Shown here: positions 4,690 through 62,020 of the stretch, one piece after another
How the letters are laid out: each line of letters begins with the position of its first letter
Position numbering within the stretch: the stretch's first letter is position 1
DNA from: Nemertoderma westbladi
Taxonomy: Eukaryota; Animalia; Xenacoelomorpha
Direction of reading: 5' to 3'
Length of the DNA stretch: 64,000 nucleotides
Assembly: GCA_032718475.1 (NCBI GenBank)
Contig: JAUCBJ010000981.1
Location: 23,308-87,307, forward strand
The notes under the pieces: generated by a model
The model's input: only the letters and a program-made list of their open reading frames with translations
The model's database searches: none
What the model was told of the DNA's origin: nothing
Translations under genes and position numbers: made by a program

Positions 4690-7110
4690 CTGTCGCGACA
4701 TTGGAGTGGATGATCGACGTTTCCGAGATGTTGCGGCGCACCGGACGATGTGAAGCAGATCGGCAACCTCGGAGGCAGAAGAGAGTGGAGTGGAGCAAAG
4801 CAAAACTCAGTTTCCATCGCACCCAGGTTATGGACTGACAGTATCGCAGTTCCTGCATTTCAGCCAGCTTGTGAGCCAGACGAGGGCCAAATCGTTTGCC
4901 AATGGTGTCATGCCCACAAACGTAGTGAATATCATAGGAACAAAGTTCCCGTGTTCCACTTCTCTCACCCGCTCCTCATACTTGCGGATCTTCCGATCCT
5001 CATCATGATAGCGGTGCGCCGCCTCTAGGGACATAGCTGCATTTGTGTTGGCTAGCGGGTTGAAGGCTGACACATCGATAAACGACCTCTGAAAGCAGTT
5101 GCCCCAGAAGCCACTCATCCACACGTCCAATCTAGACTGTTGGTCTGTGGAGGTGGATCTCAAGGCGAAATGGTCGCCCATCAGTGGCTGGAGCATGGGC
5201 TTGACAGCCACATTATGGGACACCTCAGTCAGGGTGTCGGCCAAAAAGTCGCGGATCTCATTGTGCCTGATGGAGGGAAATCCCCCCGTGGGGCACAAAA
5301 GGACGTATGAAGGAGAAAATCGCACCCCCCCCCCCCCACAAGCACAATGAGATGGCAGACTTCATTGCTTACATCCATAACACAGGCAGAGCACATCGCG
5401 GAACTCCTCTTTGTCCAGGTGTGTGTCCTGCAAAGTCAGAGGCTTGCTTTTGAGCCAGGACAATGTGCATTTCTTTGACGTCAGCTCACAGAGCTTGCGA
5501 TGTTGTGGGGAGATCTTACCATACGTTTTTTTCAGCTTTTGCTGCTGTCTCCACCAACGACTGCACCTTCACCAGAGTCACTGCATGTTTCTGCAGTTCG
5601 CGGACTGCTAACATGGTATCCGGAGATGCACACAGGAAGGGTTCGCAAATGCAGCGGGAGTTATTGTACTGGGCGCTCAAATTGGACGGAACTGGAACTC
5701 CCAACCCACCATAGTGAACAGACAAAGAAACCAGCTGTCGCTCCTCGTGGGAGATACCTGGATGGTCAACCAGGCAGCTGAGGAGTTGGGTCACCAATTC
5801 TTCTAATTTCCAGAAATGAACTGTGGCGCTTGGGATGACGTGGGACATGAATTGCCACCGACACGACAGGCCAAATACCAACCCTGTATAAAATGCGTAT
5901 GCACAGTGTCGGTCAACTGTGGCAATGTCGGTGAGGCGGTCCACCTCACCAGAGAACTGGTCGACCTTGTTGGCGATGTACTGACGTCGGAACTCTTCAG
6001 TACCAGCGACTCCACCGAGGAGTTCATGTCCCACTGAAATCACGCAGATACCCATAATGGCAAATAGTAACTCTGCCTCATTGCGCTTCTCCTCCTTCAC
6101 TGTAAGGTGGCACTTTGACAGAAAGTAGCCATACAGTAGGCCTCTCTTGGATACGACGTCCCAGAACTTATGGAGCATGGGGAGTTTCCCTGCCGCATTT
6201 CCATCACCCGCAAACCACTGCTGTTCGGCCCCACATGCATCATCCAACTCCACCAGCAATGGCATAATTGCCATGGCTACGGGGTCCCCCTGGGTGGTCC
6301 CCTCCTCCGAAAGCAGGGTCTCTCCTCCAACAAACAGCCTCATAGGGTGGCTGTAGCAGTTAGTAACAATAGCCCGGAGCGCTGGGCACACATAGCGGAT
6401 GTCATGTATCGCTGCCTGCCGATTCAGCACATTAAACGCATTAGTGGTGTTGATCTGTAGCAGCGCATTACAGTCCTCCTCTTTGAATGCATCGCTGAGG
6501 CTGTGTATGGCATACTCTATCCCAGCCTTCTGGCCGAGACAGAGTTGTGTCTCTCCGCCAACTGTCTGTAGGTCCTCCCAGATATAGTGGATGACCGATT
6601 TCCCAATGACACAGCTCAGCACCTCACCAATCCTGATGGGTCGTACGCCAGGGTTCTTGTCGAGTACCAGTAACCAGGCATTGAAGAGCATAGACACAGC
6701 CTTTGGAGGGACCACTGTCTGCGCGATCTGTTTGGCCCACCCTGCTACCTGGTCACACAGATCAGTTGACTGGCTGTGAAACTTGGCCATGAGGTGATTC
6801 CACCCCTGAACATTAAGTCCAGAAGCGCCCACTGCGTTTCCCTTCATTCACAGTAGACTGGCGACTACTACCTGGCCATCATTCCCCTCAAATATCACTC
6901 CATGGTGCTCTAGGGCACCTCAAAACTCTGTGATGAGGGTCGAATCGTCCTCTGGTTGCGCTGGGGGGTGTTTATCTCGCAGTAGTGCTTTGCACACAAC
7001 CTTGGTGTTGCCATCCTTGTCCTTGAATGCATCATTAAGTTGTGCCAAGGGCTTCCCCCGATTGAGTTCACTAAGGCATCGTTTTCGCAGCTGACACATT
7101 GCCAGTCACC
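4690..7110 (-). mobile_element. CRE-clade non-LTR retrotransposon (RT + restriction-like endonuclease), decayed, 5'-truncated
   Basis: ORF 5516..6847 carries RT motifs LDKNPGVRPI, NAFN, EEGTTQGDP, WFAGD (decayed YADD); ORF 4828..5325 has C-GG-IRHNEIRD, RLDV-GFW, FIDV and K-RKY of an RLE; frameshifts present; limits approximate. Confidence 0.88.
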
Positions 7111-7278: not shown

Positions 7279-10200
7279 ATTTTTTTTACTTACTAATTGA
7301 TATTATTACAACAAACAAATACAAACAATAAAAAACACAAAACAAACAATGGCTCTAATACCCACCACCAGGAAACAATCATACTTTAAAAAGAAAAACT
7401 TTTAGGTAGGAGCGGGAAAAGTCCAACAATATATATTATTTACAGTTTTATTTACATGGCTAATGTTGGGAGACCGGCCCCGTCCTCAAATCCCAGACCG
7501 CTACGCCACCTCGTGCGAGATCCACGCAGGCAGTGGGACGTACCGCAGACAATGGCGAACTACACTCGTGTGCGGACCCATCCCATAATGGTGGCGTAGG
7601 GTTTACCCCAGCAGCTGTGAAGTTTGGTGGCGATAATGCGGATCAGCATGTTCGCCTGCGGTGCCAACACTACGTCACACGAAGCCACGAAAGGTGAGAA
7701 GTCGCCGCGACGAGCTGCTACAGCAGCCGCGTACAACCGCTTCTTCTCATCTTCCGTAGCCTCGAGAATGGTCATAGGAGCACGTTTAGCGTAAGACTCG
7801 GCGTCAATGTTGGTTGACCTGATATCGATCAATGCCTGAGCCTGTGTGTTAAATGTGCCCCTAATCCCTACATCGCAACGCAGCCCTGCTCCATCACCAT
7901 CCTCCATCTGCTCCCTCACCACCGGCTCCAACATGACATTGCGCGGCCCAAACGCCAATGCAGCAAGGTCACCCACGGTGTCGCGCAACTCACTGTGGCA
8001 CTGGATGACATTCTTACAGACGATTCTTACAATTCAAACCGTGGTTCAAATCAAAGGCGGCCCCGCATCCGTCGCACCGACTGGGAATGCCGAGGAGGGG
8101 TCTCCCGTACCGAACTGCCACCATATCGCAGAATTCTCGTGGGGAAAGGTCATACTGGAGGTCAGCACGGGGGAGAGAAGAGATCCAGCTGCCGGTTTTG
8201 TACTCCGCTGCTCGGCGGATTGTGTGGCAGCGGTGTTCCGTCAATGCCCCCAGTGCCTCCTCGAACTCGGAAATCTCAGCCAGCTTCCTGGTCTCACCAT
8301 CCTCCTTCCTTGCCCTCACTAAACATTCCCAATGAGCTGAGAGATCAAACTCCTCTGTTCCAGCCATCGCACCACAGAGAAATCGGGTCCCTCGGGTTGA
8401 GACGAGGTACGACGGGTCGGCCTCGGATACCAGGTTTCGCAGACCCATACCTCCGCGTTGTGGGGACAAACTGAAGAGTTTGCGCTCGTCCGGCGTGATG
8501 GACCCTCCGAGCATGGCAGGGAGAAACCATTCGGCAATGGCAGTTTCAAGGACGGTGAATTCCTCTTCGCAGTCAGCGGTGACCCTCTGTATGTAGGCCC
8601 ACTCGCGCTGCAGCGAGCAAACCATGTCTGAGAAGGCCGCCTGCGGCTGGGAATCCGCCATGGTTGCCAACACGTCAGTCGCATCTACCCATGCCGCTAC
8701 CTTCGCCCGGACGAACTGGCGCTGCTCTCCTGCACTCCCGAGGAACCCACTGAGAAATCGGTGTCCTGTGACCACTTTTACAGGGTGGTCACGGAACACT
8801 CTGCGGGCCTCATCTTCATATTCCAGGGCTACCACCAGGTAGCACTTCGACGGCTCGGGATTGTAGCCAAAGGATGGTCCAATGTCGATCAGCCTCTCGA
8901 ACCACCGCAGTAAGTTGGCGAGTTTGCCCGCCCCGGCCGAGTCGTCGGCGTACCAGCTCTCGCGAACCGAAGGTGGCGGATCAACTGGAGGGCTCCGGTG
9001 GCATACATGAGCATTGCCAGTGGGTCGCACTGAGTTACGCCCTCCGCACTGAATATGATGGTATCCGTCCCCTTCATCACAAGGATGCTGTGACCACGGT
9101 AGCTATTATAGAGGAATGTGGAGCAATGTGGCCACAGGCAACGTGTGTTCCACAACACAGCCACCCGGTTGAGTGAGTTGAATGCGTTCGCCGCGTCCAC
9201 CAATAGCACGCCCCAACCCTAGTCAGCGTTGTCCTCAAAGAGTGACGACATCGAGTGTATCACCGCCTCAACTCCGGCTTAGGTCCCCGCGGACAGCTGT
9301 TCGGCGCCACACGTGATGGTGACATTGTCCCCTGTGATCATGGCCATTGCGCGGGCCATTATCCAGCGAAGACACTCCCCGATTCCGATAGGCCGCACAC
9401 CCGGACACTTATCCAGCGCAATAAGTCGGCCAGACATCAGCGCACGGAACGACTCCCATGAGACGACAACGTTCGCTAGTGTGCGGGTGAATGCAGCCAC
9501 AGTGTCACGAAGTCGCTCGCTGTGGGCGCCATAGTGGAGCAGGTAAACCCGCCAGTGCGTTGAGTCGCTGCCAGCGGGCCCACTCCCACCGTGGGGCCGC
9601 CGAGCGACATCCTCAATGTGTGCCGCAGTCACATCGACATCGACTTTAAGTGGCAGCTCGCTACAATGGATGGTTGAGTCCGAGTTGGGAGGAGCCGCTG
9701 CAGGGTGTTTGTCCTGTACAACATCGATGTCTGCTTCTGGTTCCAGAACTCCTCCTGAATCTCGTCCCATCACCCAACGGACCGCGCTCCTAACCTTGCC
9801 CTCTAGCATGAGCCTCATGAACACTCGGACAGTGTGGCCGATATCCTTATCTGAGGGCTGAGTTCCACTGTGCCTCCCTGAAGAATGCAGAGAGGAGCCG
9901 CACCTCCTGTAACAGAGTGTCTATCTCGCTGGAGCACCACATCACCACCCTGCGGCTGATAAGGCGGCGAATATCGGCTGCCTTCGCGATCTTCGGATCT
10001 CAGTGAGTGATCAGTGCATCAGCCATCATCAGTCATTCGGAATGAGCCAAGGCGTCCCCCCAACTGAGTCCCGCCACCAAGTTCCGGACCTCGGTGTCGA
10101 GGAGAGACACGACATCCCTTCCAACGGAACCACCTGGAAGTCTGTATCGTGATCCCTGCAGCTGGGTGACTCTGCGCCACTGGTGTAGTAGGTGGTCAGG

Positions 10201-17199: not shown

Positions 17200-17242
17200 T
17201 CCGGAACGTTTCGTATAGTTACTTTACACATCATCAGCCGAA
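17200..17242 (-). ncRNA. Minimal type I hammerhead ribozyme (Penelope-like variant)
   Basis: Minus strand reads uucgg CUGAUGA u gugua-aaguaac-uauac GAAA cg UU ccgga: 5-bp stem I, 5-bp stem II, palindromic ACGU stem III, GUU cleavage triplet. Confidence 0.7.
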
Positions 17243-17307
17243 ATAACAGTATAATTATGACTAAAGAAATACAGATAAATGTATTAAATAGAGACTCTAA
17301 AAGTGAA

Positions 17308-18232
17308 GATGTCCTTAGATCATTGTAATGATGATGGGGTGATGATAACTCCACCTACTGGCTCCAGAAGTCGAGGAAATCCTGCCAAGTACCTAACTGA
17401 TCTAGACTTTGCTGATGACTTAGGAGTACTCTCAGAATCATTAGAGGGAGCCCAACGGCTCCTCAGCTCATTAGAACATGCTGCTTCTAGTGTTGGTCTT
17501 TTTATTAACTCCAGAAAGACCAAAATTCTGACAGTTAACTTTGAAAGTCCTCAGCAAGTCTCTGATCGGATGAGCATAAGCTCAAAGGATGGTATGCTTG
17601 AGCATGTGGGCGACTTCTGTTACCTGGGATCATGGATCCGGAAGTCAGGTGAGGACCTTCGAATACGTAAGGGAAAGGCATGGGCAGCCTTGAATAGGCT
17701 TTCCAGGATTTGGAAGTCCCCGAGAATTAATCGAAAACTTAAGGTCCGATTATTTAGAGCAGCAGTAGTTCCAGTACTCCTCTACGGGAGTCCATGCTGG
17801 GCTCTAACTGCTGAGGACACCAAATATCTGGATGGCACATTCACAAGAATGCTACGCCGGGTTCATTGTGTCAAGTACAATGCACACATCTCCAACGAGA
17901 CACTATATAACATTGGAGGTGTCTCATTGGTTCCCCCAAGCTTGACACTAGAACAAAATCGCCTCCGCTTTGCAGGACATTGCTTTCGCCGTGAGGACCA
18001 GCCAGTGCATAATCTTGTACTTTGGCAGCCTCATGGAGTGAATAAGCATGGTGGACAGCCCATGACTTTCTTGAGACGCATCTTAAAGGACACTGGCCTT
18101 AAAGATGCGGATGATCTAGCAAATGTCATGGGTGATAGGGAGTTGTGGCGGTGCAATTTTGTTGACAAGCCGGCACAGCATTCTTAAAAATGCAGCTGCA
18201 ATGCAGCATGCCGATCCTAGTAGTAGTAGTAG
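17308..18232 (+). mobile_element. RTE-clade LINE family A, 5'-truncated
   Basis: ORF 17303..18187 with LDFADD, FCYLGS and RLRFAGHC; (TAG)n tail; TSD TAAAAGTGAA at 17298-17307 and 18233-18242. Confidence 0.92.
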
Positions 18233-21045: not shown

Positions 21046-21132
21046 TAAGAAAAATATTAGAAGAAAAATTAATTAAGTGTACCAGTACCAATGTATGTAT
21101 TTGTATAGCTCAAACAGTTAGTAGACTTAAAG

Positions 21133-22290
21133 TATGCTTCTTTGACACTACCTATAGAAACAGGGGACTTCACACCTGCCGAACTCCAAAGAAGCATTAA
21201 AAGCATGTCCAATAATAAAGCGAGTGGATTAGATGAAATCCCAGCGGAGGTATGGAAAACCGGAGTGCTAAATAGACCATTATTGAATGTTTGCAACCGG
21301 ATGTTAAAAGGGGAAAAGCCACCACCAATTGGACTAAAGGTCAACTAAAGCGTCTCCCCAAAAAAGGAGACCTCGGCATACCAACAAACTATCGTGGGAT
21401 CTGTCTGCTTGTGGTAGCTGCCAAAATATACAATAAAATGATTCTATATAGGATTAGGCCTCACATAGAGAAACTACTGCGTAAGAGCCAAAACGGATTT
21501 CGACCAAGTAGATCAACAATAGCTCAGATACTTGCACTACGGAGACTGATTGAAGGAATTAAGTCAAAGAATCTCCCCGCAGTCATGACTTTTGTGGACT
21601 TCAAGAAGGCATTCGACTCCATCCATAGAGGTAAAATGCTTGAAATCCTAAGAGCTTATGGAATACCAGAAGTAATTGTTGCTGGCATTGGATTGTTATA
21701 TTGTGACACAGAAGCGCAGGTACTCTCACCAGATGGTGAAACTGAGTTTTTCTCAATCCTGGCTGGCGTACTGCAAGGTGACACATTAGCACCATTACTA
21801 TTTGTAATTGTGCTGGATTATGCAATGAGGACGGCCACAAAGGGTGAAGATCTGGGATTCACACTTCAAGAACGCAGAAGTGATATCCGGCAACTACAGT
21901 CACAGACACCGACTTTGCGGATGACATCGCCCTGCTCTCTAATACGCTAGCAGATGCACAGCTTCTACTAAATAAGGTGGAGAGGGCTGCTAAGGAGGTT
22001 GGATTGCATATAAATGCTACCAAGACCGAATTCATGACCTTTAATGTTGATGGAGACTTGACAACCATTGATAATAATCAACTAAGGAAGGTCGATGACT
22101 TCCAGTACCTTGGATCATGGATAGAGAGTAGCAAAAAGGACATAGAAGTTAGGAAAGCAAAGGCTTGGGTAGCTCTATCAAAAATGGATACCATCTGGAA
22201 ATCAGATCTCTCCAGGCACCTGAAGACTAAGTTCTTTCGAGCCACAGTGGAAAGTGTAATTTTATACGGGGGTGAGACCTGGAAACTATC
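21133..22290 (+). mobile_element. RTE-clade LINE family B fragment (RT), frameshifted
   Basis: KASGLDEIP, NYRGICL, QNGFR, VDFKKAFDS, GVLQGDTLAP, DFADD, FQYLGS; nearly identical to 56190-57208. Confidence 0.92.
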
Positions 22291-22572
22291 TGGACTGTAC
22301 TAAATCACATTGGAGGTGTTCAATTAGTCTCCCCTAGCTTGACACTTGAACGGAACCGCCTCCGCTTTGTAGGACATTGCTTTCTCCGTGAAGACCAGCC
22401 AGTGCATAATCTTGTGTTTTGGCGGCCTTATGGCGCGAATAAGCATGGCGGACAGCCCATGACTTTCTTGCGACGCATATTAAAGGACACTGGATGATCT
22501 AGCAAATATCATGGGTGATAGGGAGTTGTGGCGGCGCAATTTTGTCGACAAGCCGGCACAACATTCTTAATG

Positions 22573-23145
22573 ACACGAAGGAACATGTTGTTTCTCTGTT
22601 TCCAAATAATTTTACTTGCTTGATATTGGTCTGTCAAAAACATAATTCGTTCAACTCAAAATTATATTTAAGAGACCGGATCATGCTGAACATGGTTGTA
22701 TAAAATGCCTTCCTATTATTTTATTTTTATTATAATTAGCAACCATGCACTAGACAAATTATCTCATATAGTGTTGCTAAGGAAATGATTGCTTATTTGA
22801 TCTGGAATGCAATACTATTTTGTTTATTATGTATGTGTGTGTGTGTTTAACTGGGTTTTGGTGTAGTTAGTTTGATTAACATGTGTCCTGCACGGGTTAG
22901 TGTAGCTGATGAGCCAAATCCCGGCGAAACACATATGCAAAAATGTAACCAATGTGATAATTTTACTTACAGTATTTAAACAGGGTTGCGCTTTGTGTCC
23001 CTGCTTAAATAAAACGATGACTACTTACGGTTGAACAGATAGGAACATGTTGTTTCTCTGTTTCCAAATAATTTTACTTGCTTGATATTGGTCTGTCAAA
23101 AACATAATTCGTTCAACTCAAAATTATATGTAATATATATATATA
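22573..23145 (+). mobile_element. Retrozyme-like non-coding insertion: a 462-nt unit plus an 89-bp terminal direct repeat
   Basis: Exact repeat at 22579-22667 and 23041-23129; (AT)n tail; candidate TSD TAATG (22568, 23146); contains a hammerhead. Confidence 0.7.
22881..22934 (+). ncRNA. Type III hammerhead ribozyme
   Basis: augugU C cugcac-ggguua-guguag CUGAUGA gcc-aaauccc-ggc GAA Acacau: all three stems pair, the core is complete, and the GUC triplet predicts cleavage after 22887. Confidence 0.92.
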
Positions 23146-24489
23146 TAATGTAGCTGCAATGCAGCATGCCGATCGAAGTAGGGGCCGCATTCAGGCACAT
23201 TGAAGCCATCATTAGTCTCTACTCTACATAATAATTTACAGTAATTGAGAGCTCACCTTCTTGCTCAAACTAATGTTGTTGACAGTTATAATGAAACATC
23301 ATTATAATTTCATATTAATTTTCTAATATTTTCACTTATTGTCAATTATAAATTATATAAATTTTAATGCATAATGTATTTAATTTATGTATAGTATAAG
23401 AAATAAGAAATATATATTTTTTTATAAAATTTATTATTGAAATATCAACTTCAATGTTGAGGGACTTAAATAACTATGTTAATTATTTTAAAATGTTGTA
23501 TGAATCATTAGATAATAAAATAGTAAAATTTGGAATTAATGATATTTTCTCCATCAGATATACCAACATTCTGAAACTACGGACTTTCTTTCAGCAGCTA
23601 GAAAGACATTCCACCCAATGAAAATGCGAGAAAATACAGAATAAATTTCAGAAGCAGAAAGTGAACTTACCTAATGATCAACCATCTCCCCAATTGATTG
23701 GCTAAAGCTACACTAATACATTATATATTACATTATATACATTATATATCAATTATATTATATTGCACAAGTAGTACTTATATTTGAACTATATACATTT
23801 TTATAATCAATAATAAATTATTAGTCTGTCTGTAGAGATAATAATTCACTTATGACCCTCCGCCTCCATATTACCCCCAACCCCATGTCCTGGAATATAG
23901 TATCTTTATTATGTGATACAAATTGTAATTATTGATACACTACTTTTATGCATTCTTAAGGATATCAAGAAAGTAGTTTGGGCTCCTGACTTAGTAGTGG
24001 ATGAGAGCGCCTTTTACACAGCAGTTACTGTTTTAATTAATAAGGCACGATTTCACATCCACCAGAGGATACAACTCAGCTATTTTATCCAAATTCTTAT
24101 ATTTCGATATTATATTTTTGAAAAACATGGATGGTAAACATTCTATTATAACCAATAAACCACTATAAAATTTAAGAATAAAAAAAACTGATGTGTAACT
24201 GGTTCAATGTCGTGAAGACGTTTTTTTAAACGCTTGTATCTAATCATCGGACTTTTTCAAAAAACGTCTTTCTAAAGATAGGAGAAAATAAAATTTGTAC
24301 TATACTACACTATATAAAAACTTTTCTGTTTCAAATGTCATGATCTCATGAAGATTTCTATAATTTGTTTAGGTTCATGAAACTAAATTAAGACACACTA
24401 CATGACCTCTCAACTCTGTTCATAGCTGGCAATATGTATTTCCTAAGTTGGTTATTAGGTGACATTATATTAGTAATATCACCTTCTCA

Positions 24490-25015
24490 ACTGTAATTGG
24501 TAAAAAGCCACTTTCCCCATTTTCCGCTGGGTAGTGCAGGGAATTGCATCCGCTTACACTCCCCCCATGCTATCTTCCTGGTGAGAAGATAGCATCAACC
24601 TTAAGTGCGCTTCAATTCCGCTGGAATCCAATCTAGTATTGGATGTGGGGTGGAATTTTCTTCTCGGGGTCAGCTTTCCAGACTGGCCCCCCTGGGTCTG
24701 TTTTCACTACCCATCCTTGGTACATCTGCGAGCTAAGTTGTACCAAGGCATCTGGCGTCTCTGTTTTAGACGATCGCCCTCACCCCTCACACAATTTTAT
24801 GTGTCGGACTTTGTTGTCCGTTTCTCTCTCACTAATCCCATAGGACTTATCCCCCTCCACGCTCGCTCCCCACTCTTGAATCTCGCACTCTTTACTTCCC
24901 AATACCCCAACACATCCTCCCCATGCTCCTCCCACACTCAACCCATCTCATTCTCACTCACTTCTATTGGGCTTCACATTCTCGTTTATGCCGTCGCACT
25001 CAAGAAGTGAGGTCC
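24490..25015 (-). mobile_element. Older related LTR element remnant (LTR edge, PPT, 3' internal region), target of the 25016 insertion
   Basis: ccgcttaca|ctccccccatgctatcttcctggtgagaagatagcat parallels 25557-25602; left limit approximate. Confidence 0.75.
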
Positions 25016-26268
25016 TGTGACGGGATCTACGGATCCCGGTTTATCCGTTGGGTTTTCTATCCACGCGTCCCCGCCGTGTGTGAAAGGTAAAAGAGTTCTG
25101 ATGTTCGGTAATATGTATAAAGGTATAATAGTCTGATATAGCACAGTATAGTATGACACGGTTACCGGTAGATAAGTATGATGGCGGTAGCGGACGGTGA
25201 CAGAAGTCCCCGTTCCACCCTACTGATCTGACTGAGTAAACTAAACTGAATAGGGAAGCACCAACAGGTAATATATGTACTGCACAGTTGGCCATATTAC
25301 TGTACCTAGTCGATGCTGTCCCCCCATTGGCTAATATCCCACTTCTCGCCCTTTCACCTTCCCTGGTGTGTTTCCCGTTGCCCCTGTTGTTCTCTCTCTG
25401 TTAGGGGTTTGGCCCCTGACCCCTATTGTGTGTGTCTCCTTTGGGGCCTATTGTCCCCGTTTACTGGGCTGACACGAGGTTGATTGGTAATCAACCTCGT
25501 GCTCCCAATATTGATCAACGGCTTACTTTGTGGGTTCATGTTAGCGGAATTGGATAAGCTAACACTCCCCCCCATGCTATCTTCCCGGTGAGAAGATAGC
25601 ATCCACCAAAAAGTTCGCTACAATTCCGCTGGATCCCGATCTAGTATCGGGTGTGGGGTGGGTTATTTTCTTTCGGAGCCGGCTTTCCGGGCCGCTCCCT
25701 ATGGGTATGATATTGCTACCCTCTGGCGTTTCGTGTCGGGCCGATCGTGCGCTTCTCTCACACAACTTTTGTTTCCCCAACACTTTCGCCCTGACTCTAC
25801 TCTTCCTCTCCTCTCTTGCTCTAACTCTTGGACTTCCCTGTCCCTCACTCTTCCTCTCACTTCTCCCCACCCACGCTTGAATTGCGCCCACACTCTCTCC
25901 ACACTATCTCCATACCACCTCTCGCTATCTCTCTTGCCCTCCCTAAGGCCCTAATCTCTAATGCTACCCCTGTGCTATCATACCATCTACCTACTGCTTA
26001 CTAACTCTAACTATCTAACTCTACTAACTACTAACTCTACTCTCCGCTAACTCTCACTACTTCTGGCTCTAACTAAAGCCTCTAACTTTCTACTAACTCT
26101 AACTAGAACTACTAAGTCTAGCTAACTCCTACTAACTCTCTACTTCTACTAACTCTACTTGACTCATCTAAGTCTACCAACTCTCTAGCCCTTTAACTAG
26201 AACTCCCTAACTCTACCCACTCTTCTAACTACGTGGCGCTTGCGGTGCCAACAACCACTCTACTATCT

Positions 26269-37542: not shown

Positions 37543-38365
37543 ACTACTACTACTACTACTAGGTCGAGCGAACTCGGACAGTGGAAATGAGAACCTTCCA
37601 GGCTCCCCGATTCTCTATAGTTGTCGCAATTTCGTTTCTCCCAAGTTCAGCATCCCTTTCAAGTTGATCTATTTATGTTATTATGGCTGGTCATTCACAA
37701 CTACACTTTCCATGCATGAGTTGGTTGCCAGAAAAGTAGATCTGGTATGACCTCGTCTTTACTTCGCCAGCAGTGCCCACTGAATCTTAATCTACGTTCA
37801 CGGAGGGTGGTTGATACAGGTGGTATTGTACCATAAAGCTCGGTGTTTGTCATGTGTTGTCTCCAGCTGATGTTTAGGGCTGCCCTTAGTAGTTTTGTGT
37901 AGCAACCATCAATTTGTTGTTCAAGTGATTTAGTCAGTGTCCAGGTCTCACCCCCATAAAAAATACACTTTCCATTGTGGCTCGAAAGAACTTAGTCTAC
38001 AGGTGCCTGGGCTGGAGAGATCTGTTTCCAGATGGTATCCATTTTTGATAGAGCTACCCAAGCCTTTGCTTTCCTAACTTCTATGTCCTTTTTCTACTAC
38101 TCTCTATCCATGATCCTAGATACTGTAAGTTGTCAACCTTTCTTAGTTGATTATTATCAATGGTTATCAAGTTTCAATCAACATTAAAAGTCATTAATTC
38201 GGTCTTGGTAGCATTTATATGCAATCCAACCTCCTTAGCAGCCATCTCCAATTTATTTAGTAGAAGCTGTGTATCTGCTAGCATATTAGAGAGCAGGTAA
38301 TGTCATCCGCAAAGTCGGTGTCTGTGACTGTAGTTGCTGGATATCTACTACTTCTGCGCTCTTGA
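37543..38365 (-). mobile_element. RTE family B 3' fragment, diverged
   Basis: (CTA)n tail followed by ggtcgagcgaactcggac, as at 56190; colinear with 56190-56997. Confidence 0.9.
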
Positions 38366-39440: not shown

Positions 39441-41929
39441 AATATGCAGAAAGACAGAGATCGACCTTGCAACTCCATGGATCGCACCACCAGATACTGA
39501 TACCAACGTAATCTACATGAACTATCATCTCGTTCCACCACATCGGGGCAATCTGTTTCGCCTGTTAATCTTGATCAACGCGCAACTGGTGGACTTTCCG
39601 ATACTCTCTTGGCTACTCTACTGGGTCCATGCTCAACATTTCTAGCTCTAGTACCTACCTAGGCTGCACTCTGTCATCTACAATTAATCAATCAATAATA
39701 ATAATTAATAACACTTTTTTCCTTTATTCTACATGGAATAGGTTATTCTATGGATTGGACTGTTGTATGTAGTGTACTATATGACTAATGTTGAATACTG
39801 GTTGGTACAACCAATATAGCTAGGGTGACGGGACCGGTATTAATAAAATTGATTGGAAGTATTTCAGGATTGGGATATATATTCGATATCAGGTGATGGA
39901 TGGGTTTTAAATAATAAGTGATTAATGGTATTTTTTTATGAGGATTATTTGTTATATGTAGAAATACTGTTCATATATATAGGTTTTCAATATATATATT
40001 GGGATATATTCGATATTAGGTAATGGGTTTTAAATAATAAGTGATTGCAAGTCAGGGTTTTTTCTGAGGATTATTTGTTATATATAATTCTATCATTTAG
40101 TTTTTTCTCACCTTTTCTTTGTCCAAATATAATTTAGGCCCCACTTCATTATATTTTTTTTTGCATCAAATATCCTTATTTTTTATACTTCACCCATTGG
40201 AGGAGCGTTTGTGATTCTTTTATCTTTCTATACAAATTATTTTTTTTTTCTTAAGGTCTAGTGTCAGCAATAGCGGTTCGGTTTTGGTCTGTTGGTGTAA
40301 AAGTTAACATGCCCCATATTGCCAGCTGATACAGTGGAGTTTATACCCAGACGATGAAGGAATGTAGGAAGGTGGATGGGAATGTGGGAATTAATAAACG
40401 CTGTTATTACCCTCCAATTGAAGGAAAAAAGCAGGTTACAGAAACAGGGTTTTCTAACCAAAACAATAAACGATTTTGTTACCTACCAATTGAGGGAAAG
40501 GAGAATGTTACCGCGGCTGACTTTTCTAACCAAAACAATAAACAACCAGCGGGCACCTTCCCACATTCCCATCCACCCACCCACCCATGTGGCAATAATA
40601 GGTTGATAAATAATTAGCATAAACATAATTATTTAAGTACTATTAGTAGTAAGAAGATTGTGATATCGTGTTAAAGTTAATTGGGAAAGCAATCAGCTGT
40701 AGTTGTTTAATTGGAGCCGTAATTGTGTCATGGGGGAGAGAGTACGAGAAAGGGAGAGAGGGAGATTGCGTGATGTGTAGTGTAGGTTGAAGTGAGAGAG
40801 AATATCGATACTTTTTATTTATTGATTTAACAGTATATTAATTATTGTGAGAGTATATTATATTTGCATTTAACTGATTTATTACATTATACTCAAACTC
40901 AGCTTTTGTTTACACCCACCTTCTTACTACCGTCCGACTGACTGATCAATAGATCATCCCCCTCAAAAAATAAAGGACATCGCGCACGCGCATAAAACAC
41001 TTAATAAAGATAAATTTAATAAAAAATATCGACCAATAAAAAATCGACCGAAAAGTGAAATCCTGGTATTCTTCACATGGGCGGTATTCTTCACATGGGC
41101 CGGCTCCAAAATTTGGCACCAGAGGAGTAGTATTTTGAAAAAAAAAATTAAATAGCGTGAAATGTAATTCCGAGATAAATTGCTTCAAAATTTGAACCTT
41201 CCCGCTCAAACCTGACTGTCTGTAGTCTGTTAATCGGTCAGTAATGTTTGACACTATGACTTCATACCAACTCACTAAAATTATCAACATGGGGGTTTTA
41301 GGGGTCAGTGATTTCCTTTCTGATGTCAGTTTTAATGTTTGGTGGTATCTAATACGTCTGTCTGACAGTTTGTCTGTCTCTCTGCCTTCTAAATTTTACC
41401 GGACAAACTGGTAGACGGAAAGACAGCGATAACTCGAGAACTAAAAAAGATCTTGCAAATCGGTTTTCAGATTTAACTCCCCATTAAATTCTGCATCAGA
41501 TGAAATAAAAAACAAAAATGTGACAATTTTACCCACGGAGGGGGTGACCGAAATCATTTATTTCCCTTGCTTTTTACCAAGGCGATTTAGACTTTCCATA
41601 ACCCCTATAGAGTTTAGACCCGTCAAGTCAAATCACAATTTTCAAAATTTATTGTCAAAATTGGTGTGTACAAACATCTGTGAGTACTCACATTATTCAT
41701 TTAAATATTATTTTGTAGTATTTGCTGGATGTGGGTAGAGCCTAAAAAATAGATGAAAAGGGAATATCAAAATTAAACGGTATATTATAGGAAGGGATCT
41801 AGGGGTCTTAACCTCGAATGATAAGTTTATTTTACCGAAAATAACTTATCTTCTATTGGTGCAAGGGTAGTGTACAAATTTTAGGAAACGCGTAATTTTT
41901 AATGAAATTAATATCTCATACCTCTCCAA

Positions 41930-41972
41930 ACCACGTACGCGTTTCGACATTACTGGGTCTCATCAGCGTGGT
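41930..41972 (-). ncRNA. Minimal type I hammerhead ribozyme
   Basis: accacg CUGAUGA gac-ccaguaau-guc GAAA cgcg UA cguggu: 6-bp stem I, 3-bp stem II, palindromic ACGCGU stem III, GUA triplet. Confidence 0.88.
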
Positions 41973-42036
41973 GTCGGATTCGAACCTGGGACCTCGAGGT
42001 GGAAGCCGAGACTACAACCACTAGGCCACAGGTTCT
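41973..42036 (-). promoter_or_regulatory. tRNA-derived Pol III internal promoter (A and B boxes) directly upstream of the hammerhead
   Basis: Minus strand has TGGCCTAGTGG (A box), a CT-TCC-AC anticodon-like loop and GGTTCGAATCC (B box); T and acceptor stems are broken. Confidence 0.8.
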
Positions 42037-42515
42037 TGAGATATGGTATTAATTGAGATTAGATTGATGAGGTATTAATTTCAAATCCAGCTGCCATAAC
42101 AAACACCTCGATAAATACAGCTTGCCAACACACATTGTTACTATCAATAAAAAAATAAAACGGGGAACACGGCATTACAATTTGAATTTATACTGTCTGC
42201 GGGGCGGGTACTGATTGGATAAATTCATAGTTTATTTTTGACATTCTTGTCGGCTTTTATATATTTTGTATTCATTAATAACTAACGTTTATTTCTAGTT
42301 GCTACAAACCTGCCAGACGTTTATTTCAAGTTGCTACAAACCTGCCAGGAAAAACTGACATTCGCCCAAGAAATACTTTGTGGTCGCAAGATATTGAGCT
42401 TATGTGCCTAGACACGATATAGTTTTTATTGAGTGTAAGATTGGGCACACATGGTTTTAGGCCCAAGTTTATCAATCACCAATTGGGCAATCTATCATGC
42501 AACAAACATATCGTC

Positions 42516-43244
42516 ATGGATATTGAATATCTGCAAATGCTATTGGTTGCTGTTTCTATAGTTACAGAGAAAGTTATAAAGGTTTCATCTATGGATTGTT
42601 TGCACGAAAATACCATGATTACTTTTAGGTCAGCTCGCCCAGATATCATGCCCGACACACCATGGTTTGAAGAACGCCCAGGAGTCAATACAACGGGTTG
42701 TACTTCCTGCCGAATGTTTTTCTCTCAATTGACAGGATTATACTTCGTAAACAGCGAAGAGATCAAAGGTTTGGCGTACAGCAGGGAACAAACCTGCGTA
42801 ACGGAGGAGGTCTGTGAGGAGATCTCCAATGAAGACGAATGCAGGGTGAGATGGAAGGATTTTCATCCTCGAGGTCTAGAACCTCATGAGGATGATGCCT
42901 ACACAGTCCGTGTCCAGATGACACGTCCAAGTTGTCAGACAGTCTGTTGCAACGGGCCAGGCGACTGCAACAAAGTTGAGGACCGAGAGTGGGAACACGA
43001 CTACCTGTTCCCAAACGGGACCGTGGATTGGACCGATTCGAAGTTTGATCCGGTTACAACAACCGAACCGGTTATAACAGTAAAGTCAACCACAGCTGAA
43101 CCGGTTACAACAACCGAACCGGTTATAACAGTAAAGTCAACCACAGCTGAACCATACACAACGACATCAAGTTGGGCAAATAATCTCAATGGAGCTGTGG
43201 CTTCTGTTTTGGTGGCAGTAACTATTCATATTAACTTCTACTGA
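42516..43244 (+). CDS. Putative Ly6/uPAR (three-finger)-like secreted or GPI-anchored protein with a Thr/Pro-rich stalk, 242 aa
   Basis: Uninterrupted ORF from the ATG at 42516; hydrophobic N-terminal stretch; 10 Cys ending CCNGPGDCN; two copies of the 17-aa PVTTTEPVITVKSTTAE; hydrophobic C-terminus after SSWANN. Confidence 0.7.
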   Translation: MDIEYLQMLLVAVSIVTEKVIKVSSMDCLHENTMITFRSARPDIMPDTPWFEERPGVNTTGCTSCRMFFSQLTGLYFVNSEEIKGLAYSREQTCVTEEVCEEISNEDECRVRWKDFHPRGLEPHEDDAYTVRVQMTRPSCQTVCCNGPGDCNKVEDREWEHDYLFPNGTVDWTDSKFDPVTTTEPVITVKSTTAEPVTTTEPVITVKSTTAEPYTTTSSWANNLNGAVASVLVAVTIHINFY

Positions 43245-49536: not shown

Positions 49537-50076
49537 TTAAAAATACGTGCGAACAATATAGTCACGGAATCGTTTTCCATCCTTAAACTGTTCCTGCAGT
49601 CTAGCCGGCAATGCTGGTGAATTATTAGCATCTGGGTCACAGTCGTCGTCGAAGTCAGGCTGTTTTCTTTCTTTGGCAATGTTGTGTAGTATGAAAGCTG
49701 CAAGTAACGTTTGAATAGCGCGTTCTGGTGCCACACGAAGGCCCATAAGTAGTCCACGAAATCGTCGTTTCAGCTGACCGAAGCTCTGCTCAATCTTAAC
49801 ACGACCTATCTTCTGCTTATAATTGTATTCCTTCTCCATCGTCGTTTGTGGATCAAGGAATGGAGTAAGTAACCATGTCTTCCCGTTCCCATACCCACTA
49901 TCGCCAAGAAGAAGTCCGCCCAAACACCCAGATTCAAAGTCCATAAACATCTGGCTTTGCTGTAGAATGAAAGAGTCATGACAACAACCAGGCCACTTGG
50001 CATATACGTGTATAAACTTGTAGTCTAAGTCACATACTGCTTGGATGTTGAGCGATTTGTGGCCTTTGCGGTCCAT
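49537..50076 (-). pseudogene. Harbinger (HARBI1-like DDE_Tnp_4) transposase, C-terminal half
   Basis: RKGHKSLNIQAVCD, WPGCCHDS, LLGDSGY, IEQSFGQLKRRF, LHN. Confidence 0.92.
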
Positions 50077-52474
50077 AAATCCAAAACACTTTGCTTTTCC
50101 GACTGGTACCTGGTTCCTGACAGATTCCTTGTCAAACCTGAAGCGCTGATAAAATTCAACATCATTGTAGACAGACCTGGAAAGGGTTAAATCTGTCCAA
50201 AATCCGCCGTTTCTCGACGAGATTCATATAATATCAATTGACGAGCCGCCATCCTAATCGTATATGAATGGATTTCCTCTACTATTTTGTTGTGTTAATA
50301 TGGGGGCGAAATAATAGTTAGATTGACGAATAATATAATATATAGAATAAATAGTAAATAAATAATTAGTAATAATTAATAACAAATTTTAATTTAATTA
50401 AATGATTATGATAGGGTTCGATGAAAACAAATTAAATATATTTGTAATCAATCGCAAGTAAAAGTATCCGACCAACAAAAGTGAATTCAGCAGTTAGTGT
50501 AGTTTTTAGGGATATCTAGAGGTCCCTAAGCAAATCGCTCTAAAGTGTTAGTGGCACTAACAGTTAGTGATCTTGGTGGAACAGGCTAGGTCATAAGGGT
50601 GGCTCAGGTTAGTGGCACTAAGCAGTTAGCACTAACACTTAAGTGGTTAGTGAGAGTTGGTGGAACCGGCTGCAGCTCTTACCATTGCACCAAACTCATT
50701 AACCAGTAAGTGTCACTAACTAGTTAGTGCCGGATGCTTAGTGACACTAACCTACCCTACCCTAACAGCTCATCACTGTTGCACCAAATTCACTAGCCAG
50801 TAACTGTCACTAACTACTGTAGTTAGTGCCTGATGCTTATGGATCTCCATACCTCCCTAACCAGCACCGTAAACTACAGTATTTAATAAATAAATTAATA
50901 AATATACAAGGTTTATTTAATATATCTTATTTATTTAATATACCTAATTAATAATACTGGCTGGTGCAACGTTATAAGAAAGTCTCACTAACACCACCAT
51001 AAGCGGTTAATTAGTGGAGCCTGGTGCAACCAGCTGCTGTTCTTTTTAATACTGGCACATCAAGTGCCTCATGCACTCTAACCCGGTTGGCAATGTACAG
51101 TAGATGTTGTTGATACTTTTAATTCCTTGGAAGTTCCAAAGAATTAATAGTTAGTGCTAGAACTTAGCATGTTGTAACAATATGATGTACAACAAAATTA
51201 TAGCTCGTGAAAATAAGTATGAGGCTGTTCAAAAATTTATTTAACTTGTATGGAAGCTATATAGTGGGGTCGCTTAAGGCTGAAATATAGCAAAATCGTT
51301 AATTGCCGGACAAAAGCATGAAAATGTGACTATATATGTAAAAAAATGTGTAGATTAATCTGAGCCTGTGTACCAAAAAAATTGACTACTTCCCTAGCAA
51401 CAGGGTGACTTTCATAGCAACCGTTGTATATTTAATGAAATTATGATTGAAACTTGGGATAAACAACCTGTCTAGCAATAGAAGATGGTTAATAGTGACA
51501 TTTGCGCTGATACACTTTTCCTTGGCAACAGGGTGACCTTTCCCTAGCAACCGCTGTATATTTATTGAAATTTTAATTGAAACTTGGGATAAACAACATG
51601 TCTAGCAATAGAAGATGGTTAATAGTGACATTTGCGCTGATACACGTTTCCTTAGCAACAAGGTGACCTTTCCCTAGCAACTGCCTGCAATTCTGATTGA
51701 ATCTTGGGATCATGTTGGGATAACCAACCTGTATAGCAATATATGCATATATATAGCATATATATAATATATAGCAATACTTTCTGCTGTTATATTTCAC
51801 TTTGCAGTTACTCCCTTGTGAAGTATACCAGGTTTTCACCAAAACCACAGGTTACAGAAGGGCTGAATCAAACCAAAACAATAAACGAATTAGTATATGT
51901 ACAGGTTATAAGACAGAAATAAGCGCTATAAAACACTTAAAAAAGATAGATTTAAAAAAATAAAAAATAGTCATATATAAAATTCCAATAAAAAGTCGAC
52001 CGAAAAGTGAAATCCTGGTATTCTTCACGTGCGGCATGGGCGAATATAAGATTATTAGTAGTTATATTAGAGCTGATTGATATACGTTTCCATAAAAATA
52101 TTTAACTTTATGGGAATAATGTGTGTTTATAAAACTACAGTGTAAAAGTACAGTTAAAAATCCAAAAATATAGCCACGCGCGGAGCTGACCCCATAATAA
52201 TAATAATATAATAATACAATATGGATATATTTCTCTAAAAAATCTGTAAGAACTACTGTACTTCCAACTTCAACAATTTTTTTACTATTTCACTTGCCAG
52301 GCCCAGATGTAATACGGTTTTAGAACATCGTCATGCACTGAAAGGAGGCCAGAGGAACAAGATATCCTTGGCAATAACTTAAATCGTTCTAGAATGTTTC
52401 GCATATAATAAAAACAAACACAGATAAATATAATACCAATAGAAGAAGACCAAGAACTGGGATACTATGTCTCA

Positions 52475-53811: not shown

Positions 53812-54834
53812 GTCTACTGCTGACGGTGACACAGAACCATTTGAAGTGTTATGGGGCGTCCTCCAAGGAGACACACTTGCACCATTCTTGTTCATTATTG
53901 TGGTTGACTATGTTCTACGCATGTCCTTAGATCATTATAATGATGATGGGGTGATGATAACTCCACCTACTGGCTCCAGAAGTCGAGGAAATCCTGCCAA
54001 GTACCTAACTGATCTAGACTTTGTGATGACTTAGGAGTACTCTCAGAATCATTAGAGGGAGCCCAACGGCTCCTCAGCTCATTAGAACATGCTGCTTCTA
54101 GTGTTGGTCTTTTTATTAACTCCAAAAAGACCAAAATTCTGACAGTTAACTTTGAAAGTCCTCAGCAAGTCTCTGATCGGATGAGCATAAGCTCAAAGGA
54201 TGGTATGCTTGAGCATGTGGACGACTTCTGTTACCTGGGATCATGGATCCGGAAGTCAGGTGAGGACCTTCGAATACGTAAGGGAAAGGCATGGGCAGCC
54301 TTGAATAGGCTTTCCAGGATTTGGAAGTCACCGAGAATTAATCGGAAACTTAAGGTCCGATTATTTAGAGCAGCAGTAGTTCCAGTACTCCTCTATGGGA
54401 GTCCATGCTGGGCTCTAACTGCTGAGGACACCAAATCTCTGGATGGCACATTCACAAGAATGCTACGCCGGGTTCATTGTGTCAAGTACAATGCACACAT
54501 CTCCAACCAGACACTATATAACATTGGAGGTGTCTCATTGGTTCCCCCAAGCTTGACACTAGAACAAAATCGCCTCCACTTTGCAGGACATTGCTTTCGC
54601 CGTGAGGACCAGCCTGTGCATAATCTTGTACTTTGGCAGCCTCATGGAGTGAATAAGCATGGTGGACAGCCCATGACTTTCTTGAGACGCATCTTAAAGG
54701 ACACTGGCCTTGAAGATGCGGATGATCTAGCAAATGTCATGGGTGATAGGGAGTTGTGGCGGTGCAATTTTGTTGACAAGCCGGCACAGCATTCTTAAAA
54801 ATGCCGCTGCAATGCAGCATGCCGATCCTAGTAG
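53812..54834 (+). mobile_element. RTE family A copy inside the Academ element
   Basis: Nearly identical to 17308-18232; TSD TACAGCACTTTGT at 53799 and 54835. Confidence 0.93.
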
Positions 54835-55959: not shown

Positions 55960-57540
55960 TCGTAATGATTTACATAATCCCGATTATGTTAGAGTGTGGT
56001 TCACTCGAGTCCGCTTAATGTCACACAGCCTGCAGATCGAAAAGGGTAGATGGAGTAGAACTCCCACCCAAGATCGTGTTTGTGTTTGTGATAAGTCGCT
56101 GTGCAGACTGAGGAACACGTTCTGACTGCTTGTCCTTTATCTGAGTGTATCCGTGATGAATATAGCAAACAATTGAACCTAAAGTCTTTACTACTACTAC
56201 TAGGTCGAGCGAACTCGGACAGTGGAAATGAGATCCTTCCAGGCTTCCCTATTCTCCATAGTTGTCGCAATTTCGTTTCTCCCAAGTTCAGTATCCCTTT
56301 CAAGTTGATCTATATATGTTATGGCAGGTCGTCCACAACTACGCTTTCCATGAGTTGGATGCCAGAGAAGTAGATCTGGTATGACCTCGTCTTTACTTCG
56401 CCTTTTAAGTGCCCACTGAATCTTAATCTGCAAGCACGGAGGGTGGTTGATACAGGTGGTATTGTACCATAAAGCTCGGCGTTTGTCATGTGTTGTCTCC
56501 AGCTGATGTTTAGGGCTGCCCTTAGTAGTCTTGTGTAGCAACCATCAATTCGTTGTTCAAGTGATTTAGTCAGTGTCCAGGTCTCACCCCCGTATAAAAA
56601 TACACTTTCCACTGTGGCTCGAAAGAACTTAGTCTTCAGGTGCCTGGAGAGATCTGATTTCCAGATGGTATCCATTTTTGATAGAGCTACCCAAGCCTTT
56701 GCTTTCCTAACTTCTATGTCCTTTTTGCTACTCTCTATCCATGATCCAAGGTACTGGAAGTCATCGACCTTCCTTAGTTGATTATTATCAATGGTTGTCA
56801 AGTTTCCATCAACATTAAAGGTCATGAATTCGGTCTTGGTAGCATTTATATGCAATCCAACCTCCTTAGCAGCCCTCTCCACTTTATTTAGTAGAAGCTG
56901 TGCATCTGCTAGCGTATTAGAGAGCAGGGCGATGTCATCCGCAAAGTCGGTGTCTGTGACTGTAGTTGCCGGATATCTACTACTTCTGCGTTCCTGAAGC
57001 ATGAATCCCAGATCTTCACCCTTTGTGGCCGTCATCATTGCGTAATCCAGCACAATTACAAATAGTAATGGTGCTAATGTGTCACCTTGCAGTACGCCAG
57101 CCAGGATTGAGAAAAACTCAGTTTCACCATCTGGTGAGAGTACCTGCGCTTCTGTGTCACAATATAACAATCCAATGCCAGCAACAATTACTTCTGGTAT
57201 TCCATAAGTAGTTTCTTTAAGTAGCATTTTCTATGAAAATACCGATAAACTTGAGGTAGTATGTAAATTTATTTCTGATGTTATTGGCCTTTACTAGTTT
57301 AAATTCAATATAATTTTGGTTTCACTTATGTATGACATTGCCTTGTATTACATTGTATATTTATTTATGATTGATTAATTTGTGCATTCTTATATTTATA
57401 TTATGGTGGCTTACTGTATTTTGGTTTCAATCAAGTAGAAAGACATTATTAAGTACAATTTATGGAATGACTGTGCTTGTTACATTACTTAGGTACATGT
57501 TACTGGCTGTTGGGGCGTTTTAACGAATAAATTAATTAAA
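55960..57540 (+). mobile_element. 3' end of an L2/CR1-group LINE, split by an RTE-B copy
   Basis: TRVRLMSHSLQIEKGRW..RVCVC..QTEEHVLTAC before 56190; VVCKFISDVIGLY* after 57209; AATAAA tail at ~57526; limits approximate. Confidence 0.7.
56190..57208 (-). mobile_element. RTE family B, 5'-truncated
   Basis: ORF 56319..57227 with GVLQGDTLAP and DFADD; (TAG)n tail. Confidence 0.93.
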
Positions 57541-60332: not shown

Positions 60333-62020
60333 TCACTTTTTAGCTGCTCGTAATAGCTGTTTGCCATAATTTGGATTCCCTTCCCCGATCTTGTACTTCA
60401 CCCAGGTAGATTCAAAGTCAGAGTGAACGGACTCTGATGCCTGTTCGCTCCAATACCCGAGACCTAATTGACGTGGACTGCAGAACTGTGGTGCATGGAA
60501 TAAAACTGCATGGATCTTTGGTGTGATATTAATCCCGAGATCCGGGTAACACCTCCTGAATCTTTCTATGCAATCAACATAATTATCCATTAACTGTAAC
60601 CCATAGCAGGAGATAACAACCTGGTTGAATGCATGGAAGGCAGCAACATATCGATAATGTTGTAGTGGACAAATGCCTTGTAGAGTATCAACAGATTTTA
60701 ATAGTTCGCGGGATGAATTTCCATTAAATGAGCCACCATGGCTAGCTTCACGCTCAATGTACAAAGATTTAGGCCGTTCAATCACACCAGGCCATACTTT
60801 AAGCAATCCATTATATATTGTATTTACGGGTCCTAACATGAGAAGTAACTCTGGGGGTGGTATCACATCAAGGACCATGGTATCTTTGTCACTTATTGGG
60901 ACTGGGGGATGGGCACAGTTTGCAAAGTCTTTGGCCTTCTTTGGATCCTTGGCAGCTTCCTCGTAGAAATCCCAAAAATTATTATCAATATTAGCAAGGG
61001 AACGCATCTTGCCCACCTCACCAAGAGAATCCTTGTGAGTCTCACACCAGGTACAAGGGTAACACGAACTATGAGACATTAGCCCCAAAATAATATTAGC
61101 AAGTTTACGATCTGTGGCTATAATAGGAGTAGGGATAATCTTGGTTACAATCTCATTTAGTTTTAGTTTCATCCAAACTTTGAGCACATTAGTATAGTTT
61201 TCCTGAACATTAGGAGCAATTAACAGGATAAACAGCCGTTTTAGCTCAACATCGATACAGAATACAGATTCTCTTGAAGTTAATTCATAGTTATTCGAAT
61301 TAGCTTCCTTGAAGATAAAGTTTACAGGTGATGAATCAAAGAACTCATTGACTTTGTGGTTTTATATTGCGCAACTTGTCTTCCAAGTAGGTCTCAATAC
61401 AATCTCTGCTGCTAATAGTTGTACGGATGTGGGTTGCTAGGCATAATGTTTGGTTTGAACTCAGGTTCATGTCAACTTGGATACGTGATAAGGCACTTGT
61501 ACTAAACAGTACCTTCTTAACATGATGAACTGGACTAGTCCTTCCTGATCTCATCTTAGCAGCAACAGCAATAGGAAATGACTTACCTGTGCTTGTAGAT
61601 AATGACATCGTTTCTTTGGAAGATGAAGAGGTCAACACCGAATCATCTAGTTTGCCTTTTATTATAGCTGCTGCTAATTTATCCTTAGAAGTAGAAGTAG
61701 GGGTACCAGAACCGGCTATCTGATGTAGATTTTCAATTCTTTTACCCTTAGTGCACTGATGTTGCTTTCCACGGCCAATTACTGTAAGGCAATAGGTACA
61801 TAAGCTCATTGTTGCTGGTTTGAGATGACTACTATCTTTACCTGAAGTGGATTCCACCGGCCTTCCAGTTCCAGGGCGTTGTTTGTGTAAAGTTGGAGTA
61901 TCAGTTGAAACAGAAGAAACAACTGCTGCCTTACAGACTTCACATTTATATCGTTCAGATGATGTCGCTCTTGTAAATGGTGGAAGGGTTCCAATTACAG
62001 AATGATCAGAGTTTAATCCT
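60333..62020 (-). pseudogene. Chapaev/Transib-type (RAG1-core-like) DDE transposase relic
   Basis: TDRKL..ILGL..SCYPCTWC, PPELLLMLG, FNGNSSRELL, ITPKIHAVLFH, GLGYWSEQASESVH; N-terminal CEVC and CTYC-HQC in 61345..61950. Confidence 0.72.

Follow-up and report, generated by a model that had tools for sequence, protein, structure and literature searches.

What kind of element has left a complete hammerhead ribozyme motif inside the 3' untranslated region of an RTE retrotransposon in Nemertoderma westbladi, and from what template was it copied? The locus lies on contig JAUCBJ010000981.1 of assembly GCA_032718475.1, within a stretch of 64,000 nt that was analysed as a whole (hereafter the window). 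We consider it probable that the insertion belongs to a young, multicopy non-LTR retrozyme that combines a type III hammerhead with a lock strand, and that it was likely copied from a circular RNA into AT-rich DNA by a Penelope-type enzyme.

A type III hammerhead in a non-coding 462-nt unit

The insertion comprises one full unit and part of a second, with the following features:

22572-22578, plus strand: 6-7 nt like neither the unit nor intact RTE copies, likely an untemplated 5' junction
22579-23040, plus strand: non-coding unit, one full pass (462 nt, 33% GC)
22642-22665, plus strand: small hairpin with an A/C-rich loop beside the 3' end point (predicted helix)
22881-22934, plus strand: type III hammerhead motif, in which all 15 pairs check out
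22881-22886/22929-22934: stem III, 6 bp including U16.1-A15.1
22885-22887: cleavage triplet GUC, predicted cut after C22887
22888-22893/22900-22905: stem I, 6 bp, two of them G·U
22906-22912: hammerhead core CUGAUGA
22913-22915/22923-22925: stem II, 3 bp
22926-22929: GAAA of the hammerhead
Hammerhead loops: GGGUUA and AAAUCCC
23041-23129, plus strand: the unit's first 89 nt repeated without change, closing the insertion on its 3' side

Both the unit and the exact 89-bp terminal repeat described in the original prediction were recovered (22579-22667 is identical to 23041-23129, period 462), and the locus amounts to 551 nt, or 1.19 units, with a single ribozyme. The unit is non-coding as had been claimed, the longest stop-free stretch on either strand, read round the unit, being 65 aa. 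No LTR, PBS or PPT was found in its sequence, the 89-bp repeat being without a ribozyme and the ends scattered, and no ORF with reverse transcriptase plus GIY-YIG lies between the repeats at the locus. Transcription of the unit by Pol III was considered and rejected, as no A-box match accompanies the B-box-like 9-mer at 22649-22657 and six T4-5 runs are found internally.

The hammerhead itself was confirmed in full: besides the 15 of 15 pairs, it has the CUGANGA core, the GAAA, an NUH site (GUC), stems I and II closed by loops and an open stem III. Since stems I and II are both capped by short loops, the topology is type III. The loop GGG (22894-22896) could pair with the loop CCC (22920-22922), which makes the two a candidate pseudoknot. 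A type III descriptor yielded one match in the 64-kb window, and none of 300 dinucleotide shuffles gave stems I and III of at least 6 bp (1/300 with looser stems); the motif is beyond chance. On the minus strand of the unit, no core with at most one mismatch in CUGANGA is present, and a second ribozyme there was rejected, as the lock strand described below mirrors only the 3' half of the motif and its core is degenerate.

An Rfam search, proposed earlier as a check, returned nothing for the motif at the gathering score, and none of the five matches at E<=10 belongs to a hammerhead family; at the gathering score the search also missed the two type I hammerhead motifs of the window. One of these (17200-17245, minus strand) is a minimal motif with a 5-bp stem I and a palindromic stem III that adjoins the 5' end of an RTE fragment, and presumably resembles the motifs of Penelope pseudo-LTRs. 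The other (41925-42030, minus strand) follows directly upon a tRNA-like head with A-box- and B-box-like motifs (GGTTCGAATCC); it is likewise a minimal type I hammerhead, with a 6-bp stem I, a palindromic stem III and a predicted cut near 41936. ARAGORN called no tRNA at this site, whose arrangement resembles the tRNA-plus-hammerhead repeats of Schistosoma (tRNA mentioned in excerpts of PMC4918200).

For the ribozyme alone, the active fold is predicted to lie 4.7 kcal/mol above a competing fold in an energy model that leaves out the pseudoknot; the competitor draws on the GGG/CCC pairing as well, and the program has no means of scoring this pairing as a pseudoknot. In these equilibrium predictions the active fold is never the minimum, whatever the folding context. 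A further weak point is stem II, with only 3 bp.

A lock strand and a predicted switch

Directly upstream of the motif lies a further element:

22827-22880, plus strand: lock strand, 54 nt, a degenerate inverted copy of 22896-22948 that pairs with the 3' half of the ribozyme

The circular plus-strand fold reaches -118 kcal/mol (z -4.9; 0/100 shuffles as low) and the minus-strand fold -85 kcal/mol (z -2.3; 1/100 shuffles as low). In the former, none of the 15 ribozyme pairs forms, because 22827-22880 pairs with 22896-22948 as a rod. The lock duplex is predicted at -46.0 kcal/mol, compared with -20.2 for the same arms on the minus strand, and an energy as low was found for none of 14,172 other 54-nt tiles of the window and none of 2,000 shuffles of the lock. 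Over 48 positions the pairing comprises 32 Watson-Crick pairs, 11 G·U, one A·C and four others; when one diagonal was selected solely for its number of Watson-Crick pairs, it had 11 G·U against 2 A·C (p=0.011). As a decaying DNA palindrome would give G·U and A·C in equal number, it is likely as plus-strand RNA that the pairing has been maintained. Three variants fall in the lock: 22850G, carried by all other copies aligned, turns the one A·C into G-C, 22873G (17-64% of depth) adds a G·U, and a G-C is lost with 22855T (8-22% of depth).

The effect of the lock depends on its context in the folding predictions. With the lock upstream alone, as in the window copy, the ribozyme fold lies 24.0 kcal/mol over the minimum, and the gap drops to 8.6 kcal/mol once the 5' part of a cut unit is added in front; the lock pairs with this part (43 pairs) until the chain reaches 22930. 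In the fold of a cut-to-cut monomer, both ends come to lie next to each other where the rod terminates. These models predict that the lock strand turns the ribozyme off and aligns the ends of the cut monomer, as in plant retrozymes and viroids. The single ribozyme of the window copy is probably locked in this manner, so that a cleavage test on the whole unit could give a false negative.

A young family of near-identical copies

Five of nine listed sequencing runs, in four studies, contain the stretch or part of it, and no run on record as RNA is among those that carry it. In run X3, single unitigs identical to the unit have depths of 2077, 2240 and 2518 against 24 for the flank, and in run X4 one has a depth of 5572 against 74.7, giving a unit/flank ratio of about 75-105. 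The unitigs used are identical to the unit over 68-80 nt, and only single-unitig depths were taken, summed depths not being copy numbers; if the flank is present on one haplotype only, the copies per haploid genome would come to about half the ratio. The family comprises tens to about a hundred near-identical copies and is young. Single-copy status is excluded by these depths, and the multicopy family with circularly permuted copies that had been anticipated is supported by them together with scattered ends and by cover across both end points. Five substitutions and one 2-nt length variant pass a 3% threshold. The ribozyme carries none of them, which is uninformative, as 5 sites in 462 nt leave a chance of about 47% of finding none in 65 nt.

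In runs X1, X3 and X4 the cover is unbroken over 22667/22668 and 23040/23041, and the share of depth that leaves the unit into unlike sequence is 0-0.01. In addition, a 383-nt contig from run X2 reads 22893-23040 and then 22579-22813 with no differences, beyond the end of the window copy. Taken together, these observations describe the path of the family as a closed 462-nt cycle. No contig is long enough to span two ribozymes, and for this reason no tandem with two ribozymes is found among them. In run X2, which is only guessed to be RNA, depths of 67-113 for the RTE and 5.6 for the unit fit low-coverage DNA, and its cover gap at 22849-22892, around the cut site, was not taken as evidence.

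The 22 loose ends listed, of 160, are spread over 16 positions; of the 13 listed on the 3' side, 4 lie at 22665-22671, one of which may be the present locus. Loose ends at 22625 and 22690 were set aside, as they look like diverged continuations and not like true ends. Two head-to-head inverted joints were found, one linking 22888 to 22600 (a single contig of X3) and one linking 22649 to 23016 (X4 and X5), and a joint of 22547-22664 in run contigs is ambiguous in orientation. Position 22888 is the first base past the predicted cut, as expected for cDNA run-off from a cleaved RNA, while a chance match is not negligible among dozens of ends. The lock strand itself looks like an inverted arm that meets a direct arm head to head, and its resemblance to the present inverted joints of the family leads us to speculate that it may have arisen in this way.

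The original prediction explained the terminal repeat as the cDNA of about 1.2 passes round a circular RNA. The length fits, but as the family is near-clonal, an identical 89-bp repeat would also result from the copying of a tandem transcript. The same non-autonomous element may accordingly use as template a linear multimer transcript of tandem arrays, with no need of a circle and with a ribozyme that is rarely active or a passenger; a dimer transcript of near-clonal units would suffice, and the junctions are accounted for just as well in this way. In vitro, uncut RNA was accepted by a Penelope protein, and ribozyme mutants had no effect on insertion (excerpts of PMC11167929), while cleavage was absent in 8 of the 9 tested Xenopus dimer elements (excerpts of bioRxiv 10.64898/2026.07.22.740005). 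It is the lock that favours the circle: a strand that is specific to the plus orientation and is predicted to hold the cut ends close to each other is what a ligated and protected circle needs, and one copy ends at the predicted cut site. We therefore consider a linear template unlikely.

The closed path of the family also bears on the possibility that a coding Penelope-like element has the unit as its pseudo-LTR, the insertion then being a 5'-truncated partial tandem of it. Partial tandems with inverted arms are typical of such elements (excerpts of PMC8557442), animal retrozymes are reported to derive from pseudo-LTRs (excerpts of bioRxiv 10.64898/2026.07.22.740005), and a few ORF-bearing masters would hide in an exit share of 1%. 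However, the 462-nt path closes on itself with hardly any depth leaving it, and the repeats enclose no ORF; besides, the hammerheads of pseudo-LTRs are described as type I, and the unit has no similarity to the type I motifs of the window. Such an origin seems quite improbable to us.

The insertion site and its surroundings

The insertion is flanked by the two parts of an RTE copy, for which uninterrupted relatives are available in the window:

22299-22571, plus strand: 3' part of RTE family B, up to the insertion
23130-23150, plus strand: AT-rich stretch, probably target and not tail (RTE subfamily variant)
23147-23181, plus strand: rest of the 3' UTR of RTE family B, after the insertion
17902-18223 and 54513-54834: uninterrupted copies of RTE family B

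The two uninterrupted copies corroborate the earlier claim that an RTE 3' UTR has been split. They are 98.6% identical to each other and 84-85% identical to the interrupted piece, which thus belongs to another subfamily. Immediately upstream, 21100-22298 is occupied by a second RTE family (A), truncated where the family B fragment starts and related to 56572-57208 on the minus strand (98% over 637 bp) and to 37936-38365 on the minus strand (91%).

The AT-rich stretch had been read as an (AT)n tail and TAATG as a target site duplication, both of which would be accounted for if the retrozyme were mobilised by a LINE, e.g. the host RTE, with such a tail and a 5-bp duplication. TAATG is indeed present on either side of the insertion (22568-22572 and 23146-23150), RTEs are extremely abundant in the genome, and LINE-like target site duplications are reported for Nematostella repeats (excerpts of PMC4918200). 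Neither reading was confirmed. Both intact RTE copies have CATTCTTAAAAATG at the insertion point, so that a TAATG duplication needs a further deletion of 3 nt. Contigs that run past 22571 without the element (75, 60 and 65 in X1, X3 and X4) have a consensus starting with ATATATGTAATATATATAA at an agreement of 0.49-0.51, no single empty-site contig being among those listed, and this consensus matches the AT stretch at 23126-23149, which therefore probably pre-existed in the RTE subfamily. In the simplest reading, the AT stretch was already in the target and the TAATG flanks are probably a coincidence; a microhomology of about 5 nt (TATAT) between the end of the element and the AT stretch is possible. 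As tail and duplication are probably derived from the target, they point to a Penelope-type integration more than to a LINE-type one. The RTE's own 3' end, moreover, is a TAG repeat that is absent from the unit, and the copy ends are scattered, not fixed. We regard mobilisation by a LINE as highly improbable. A satellite or dispersed repeat at the DNA level with an inactive hammerhead-like fossil, for which the silence of Rfam could be cited, is more improbable still, given that the core and three stems are intact, that strand-specific G·U-rich pairing is meaningless in double-stranded DNA and that the junction looks like one of retrotransposition.

The window as a whole is crowded with nested retrotransposons and DNA transposons. 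Degraded ORF sets of retrotransposon type at two places (4828-6847 and 7560-9920, minus strand), without a Pfam hit, look like CRE-type elements, one reverse-transcriptase ORF of the window groups with animal clusters at 0.94 (a lead only), and a fragment of a Harbinger-type DDE_Tnp_4 transposase is located at 49537-50223 on the minus strand. A diverged direct repeat (24540-24653 and 25546-25661, about 1,007 bp apart) contains a 29-nt palindrome, and a 224-aa ORF is duplicated in near-identical form on the minus strand (61345-62019 and 62979-63653), the copy tested being without a Pfam match. An open frame of 273 aa (42423-43244, plus strand) has cysteines, a threonine-rich repeat and a hydrophobic end; sequence search gave no homologue for it, and the nearest atlas clusters are Ly6/uPAR-like at 0.87, again a lead only.

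How the element may be copied

For a retrozyme copied from a locked circle, the reading that we favour, the cycle would begin with read-through transcription of a locus with at least two units, and the multimer transcript would be cut after C22887 in each of them. According to the fold models, the lock in such a multimer would first pair with the preceding cut unit, which would make the next ribozyme cheaper to fold, and in the released monomer the rod would set the ends side by side for ligation and afterwards block re-cutting of the circle. Closure would likely be achieved by a host RtcB-type ligase; RtcB has ligated axolotl and mussel retrozymes in vitro (excerpts of PMC7229834). The locked circle would then undergo target-primed copying into AT-rich DNA, likely by a Penelope-type enzyme. 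Penelope-like elements are known for partial tandems, inverted 5'-truncated arms and a (TA)n bias (excerpts of PMC8557442), and a Penelope-like protein in purified form has been found to cleave AT-rich DNA and to initiate within its RNA, at an A/C-rich stem-loop (excerpts of PMC11167929).

In the case of the present copy, reverse transcription may have begun around 22665-22667, with a handful of matching A/T bases for priming and no duplication of the target; the small hairpin at 22642-22665 is, tentatively, a candidate for the start site. Copying would have proceeded once round, through the uncut site, and over 89 nt more before it stopped. With its one ribozyme, which is probably locked, the window copy itself likely makes no circles, and source loci with at least two ribozymes are predicted.

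A bolder reading would see here an animal circular RNA of viroid architecture, whose type III ribozyme is switched by a G·U-rich lock derived from one of its own head-to-head inverted insertions, and which either originated independently or captured the design of a plant retrozyme or viroid, possibly with RNA-to-RNA copying. We find it rather unlikely.

Comparison with known systems

Metazoan non-LTR retrozymes, described from coral, mussel and axolotl (excerpts of PMC7229834 and of bioRxiv 10.64898/2026.07.22.740005), are like the present unit short, low in GC, non-coding and multicopy, with one hammerhead per unit; they likewise lack LTR, PBS and PPT, and Penelope-like helpers have been proposed for them. 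The unit shares their non-coding length of a few hundred bp, a GC content below 50% and the multicopy state, but their hammerheads are type I and that of the unit is type III (excerpts of PMC7229834). The element thus works like a non-LTR retrozyme while standing outside the family as defined. In the accounts excerpted, their circles are mostly predicted with the ribozyme free, some mussel ones excepted, whereas ours is predicted to be rod-locked, and their RNAs are reported at 170-400 nt, slightly below the 462 nt of the unit.

The plant LTR retrozymes (excerpts of PMC4918200 and PMC7761336) offer the opposite combination. In their circles, cutting is prevented by a long hairpin in which a complementary strand pairs with the type III ribozyme, a trait which the unit appears to share according to the fold models and the strand asymmetry of its pairing. 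As described there, however, each of their LTRs of 300-400 bp carries a ribozyme and is accompanied by PBS, PPT and 4-bp target site duplications, all absent from the unit, and their RNAs are of 600-1000 nt with a GC content above 55%, compared with 33% GC and scattered ends in the unit.

The original prediction regarded type III as typical of plant retrozymes and viroid-like RNAs, animal hammerheads being mostly type I. Type III as such is no novelty in animal genomes, isolated motifs being reported from termites and dipterans (PMC7936874). The termite and dipteran hammerheads resemble ours as animal type III motifs with possible Watson-Crick pairing between loops 1 and 2, but differ in their long extensions of helix I and 6-bp stem II, the present one being compact (6/3/6 bp). 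In termite genomes they are isolated motifs, whereas that of the unit sits in a mobile repeat that encodes no protein. Insect elements with type III motifs have been mentioned as unpublished (excerpts of PMC7761336; PMC7936874).

With Penelope-like elements, the unit has in common the partial tandem, the inverted 5' arms, the AT-rich target and the absence of a clear target site duplication (excerpts of PMC8557442 and PMC11167929), as well as a possible preferred internal start (excerpts of PMC11167929). Their pseudo-LTRs, as far as these excerpts go, carry a type I ribozyme; the unit has type III and no ORF. Hammerhead viroids and satellite RNAs (excerpts of PMC6155905 and PMC7761336) agree with the unit in size, ribozyme type and a ribozyme blocked in the circle. 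In contrast to what is described there, the unit is chromosomal, multicopy in DNA, AT-rich and branched outside the lock, has no ribozyme on the minus strand and gives no sign of infectivity.

A search for relatives elsewhere gave no match to a family-specific pattern in metagenome contigs, and an architecture pattern matched nothing in viral contigs and five metagenome contigs. The five were rejected as relatives: stem I is formed by none of them, none can be aligned with the unit, and the only Rfam match among them was a tRNA. Two metagenome contigs, L004 and L005, carry related hammerhead-core motifs without a type III fold; towards its far end, L004 has a comparable motif on the other strand. 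A 2011 survey of type III motifs in animal genomes (Seehafer et al.) may list such repeats. In the literature searched, chiefly freely available papers without their supplements, no non-LTR repeat of an animal was found to be described as carrying a type III hammerhead.

None of the three components is new in itself, be it the retrozyme, the animal type III motif or the locked circle; what is unusual is a mobile non-LTR repeat built on type III. Eukaryotic hammerheads associated with repeats are overwhelmingly type I, and the possibility has been raised that repeat propagation needs this type (PMC3088659). Retrozymes have been split into those of plants (type III, locked, with LTRs) and those of animals (type I, mostly unlocked, linked to Penelope); the present element mixes traits of both, suggesting that the type of ribozyme does not depend on the machinery by which the element is mobilised. 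If the lock acts as modelled, it would offer an RNA-only answer to the question, left open in the excerpts of PMC7229834, of how animal circles escape self-cutting, and the predicted strand-swap switch could serve as a compact cassette for the production of circular RNA.
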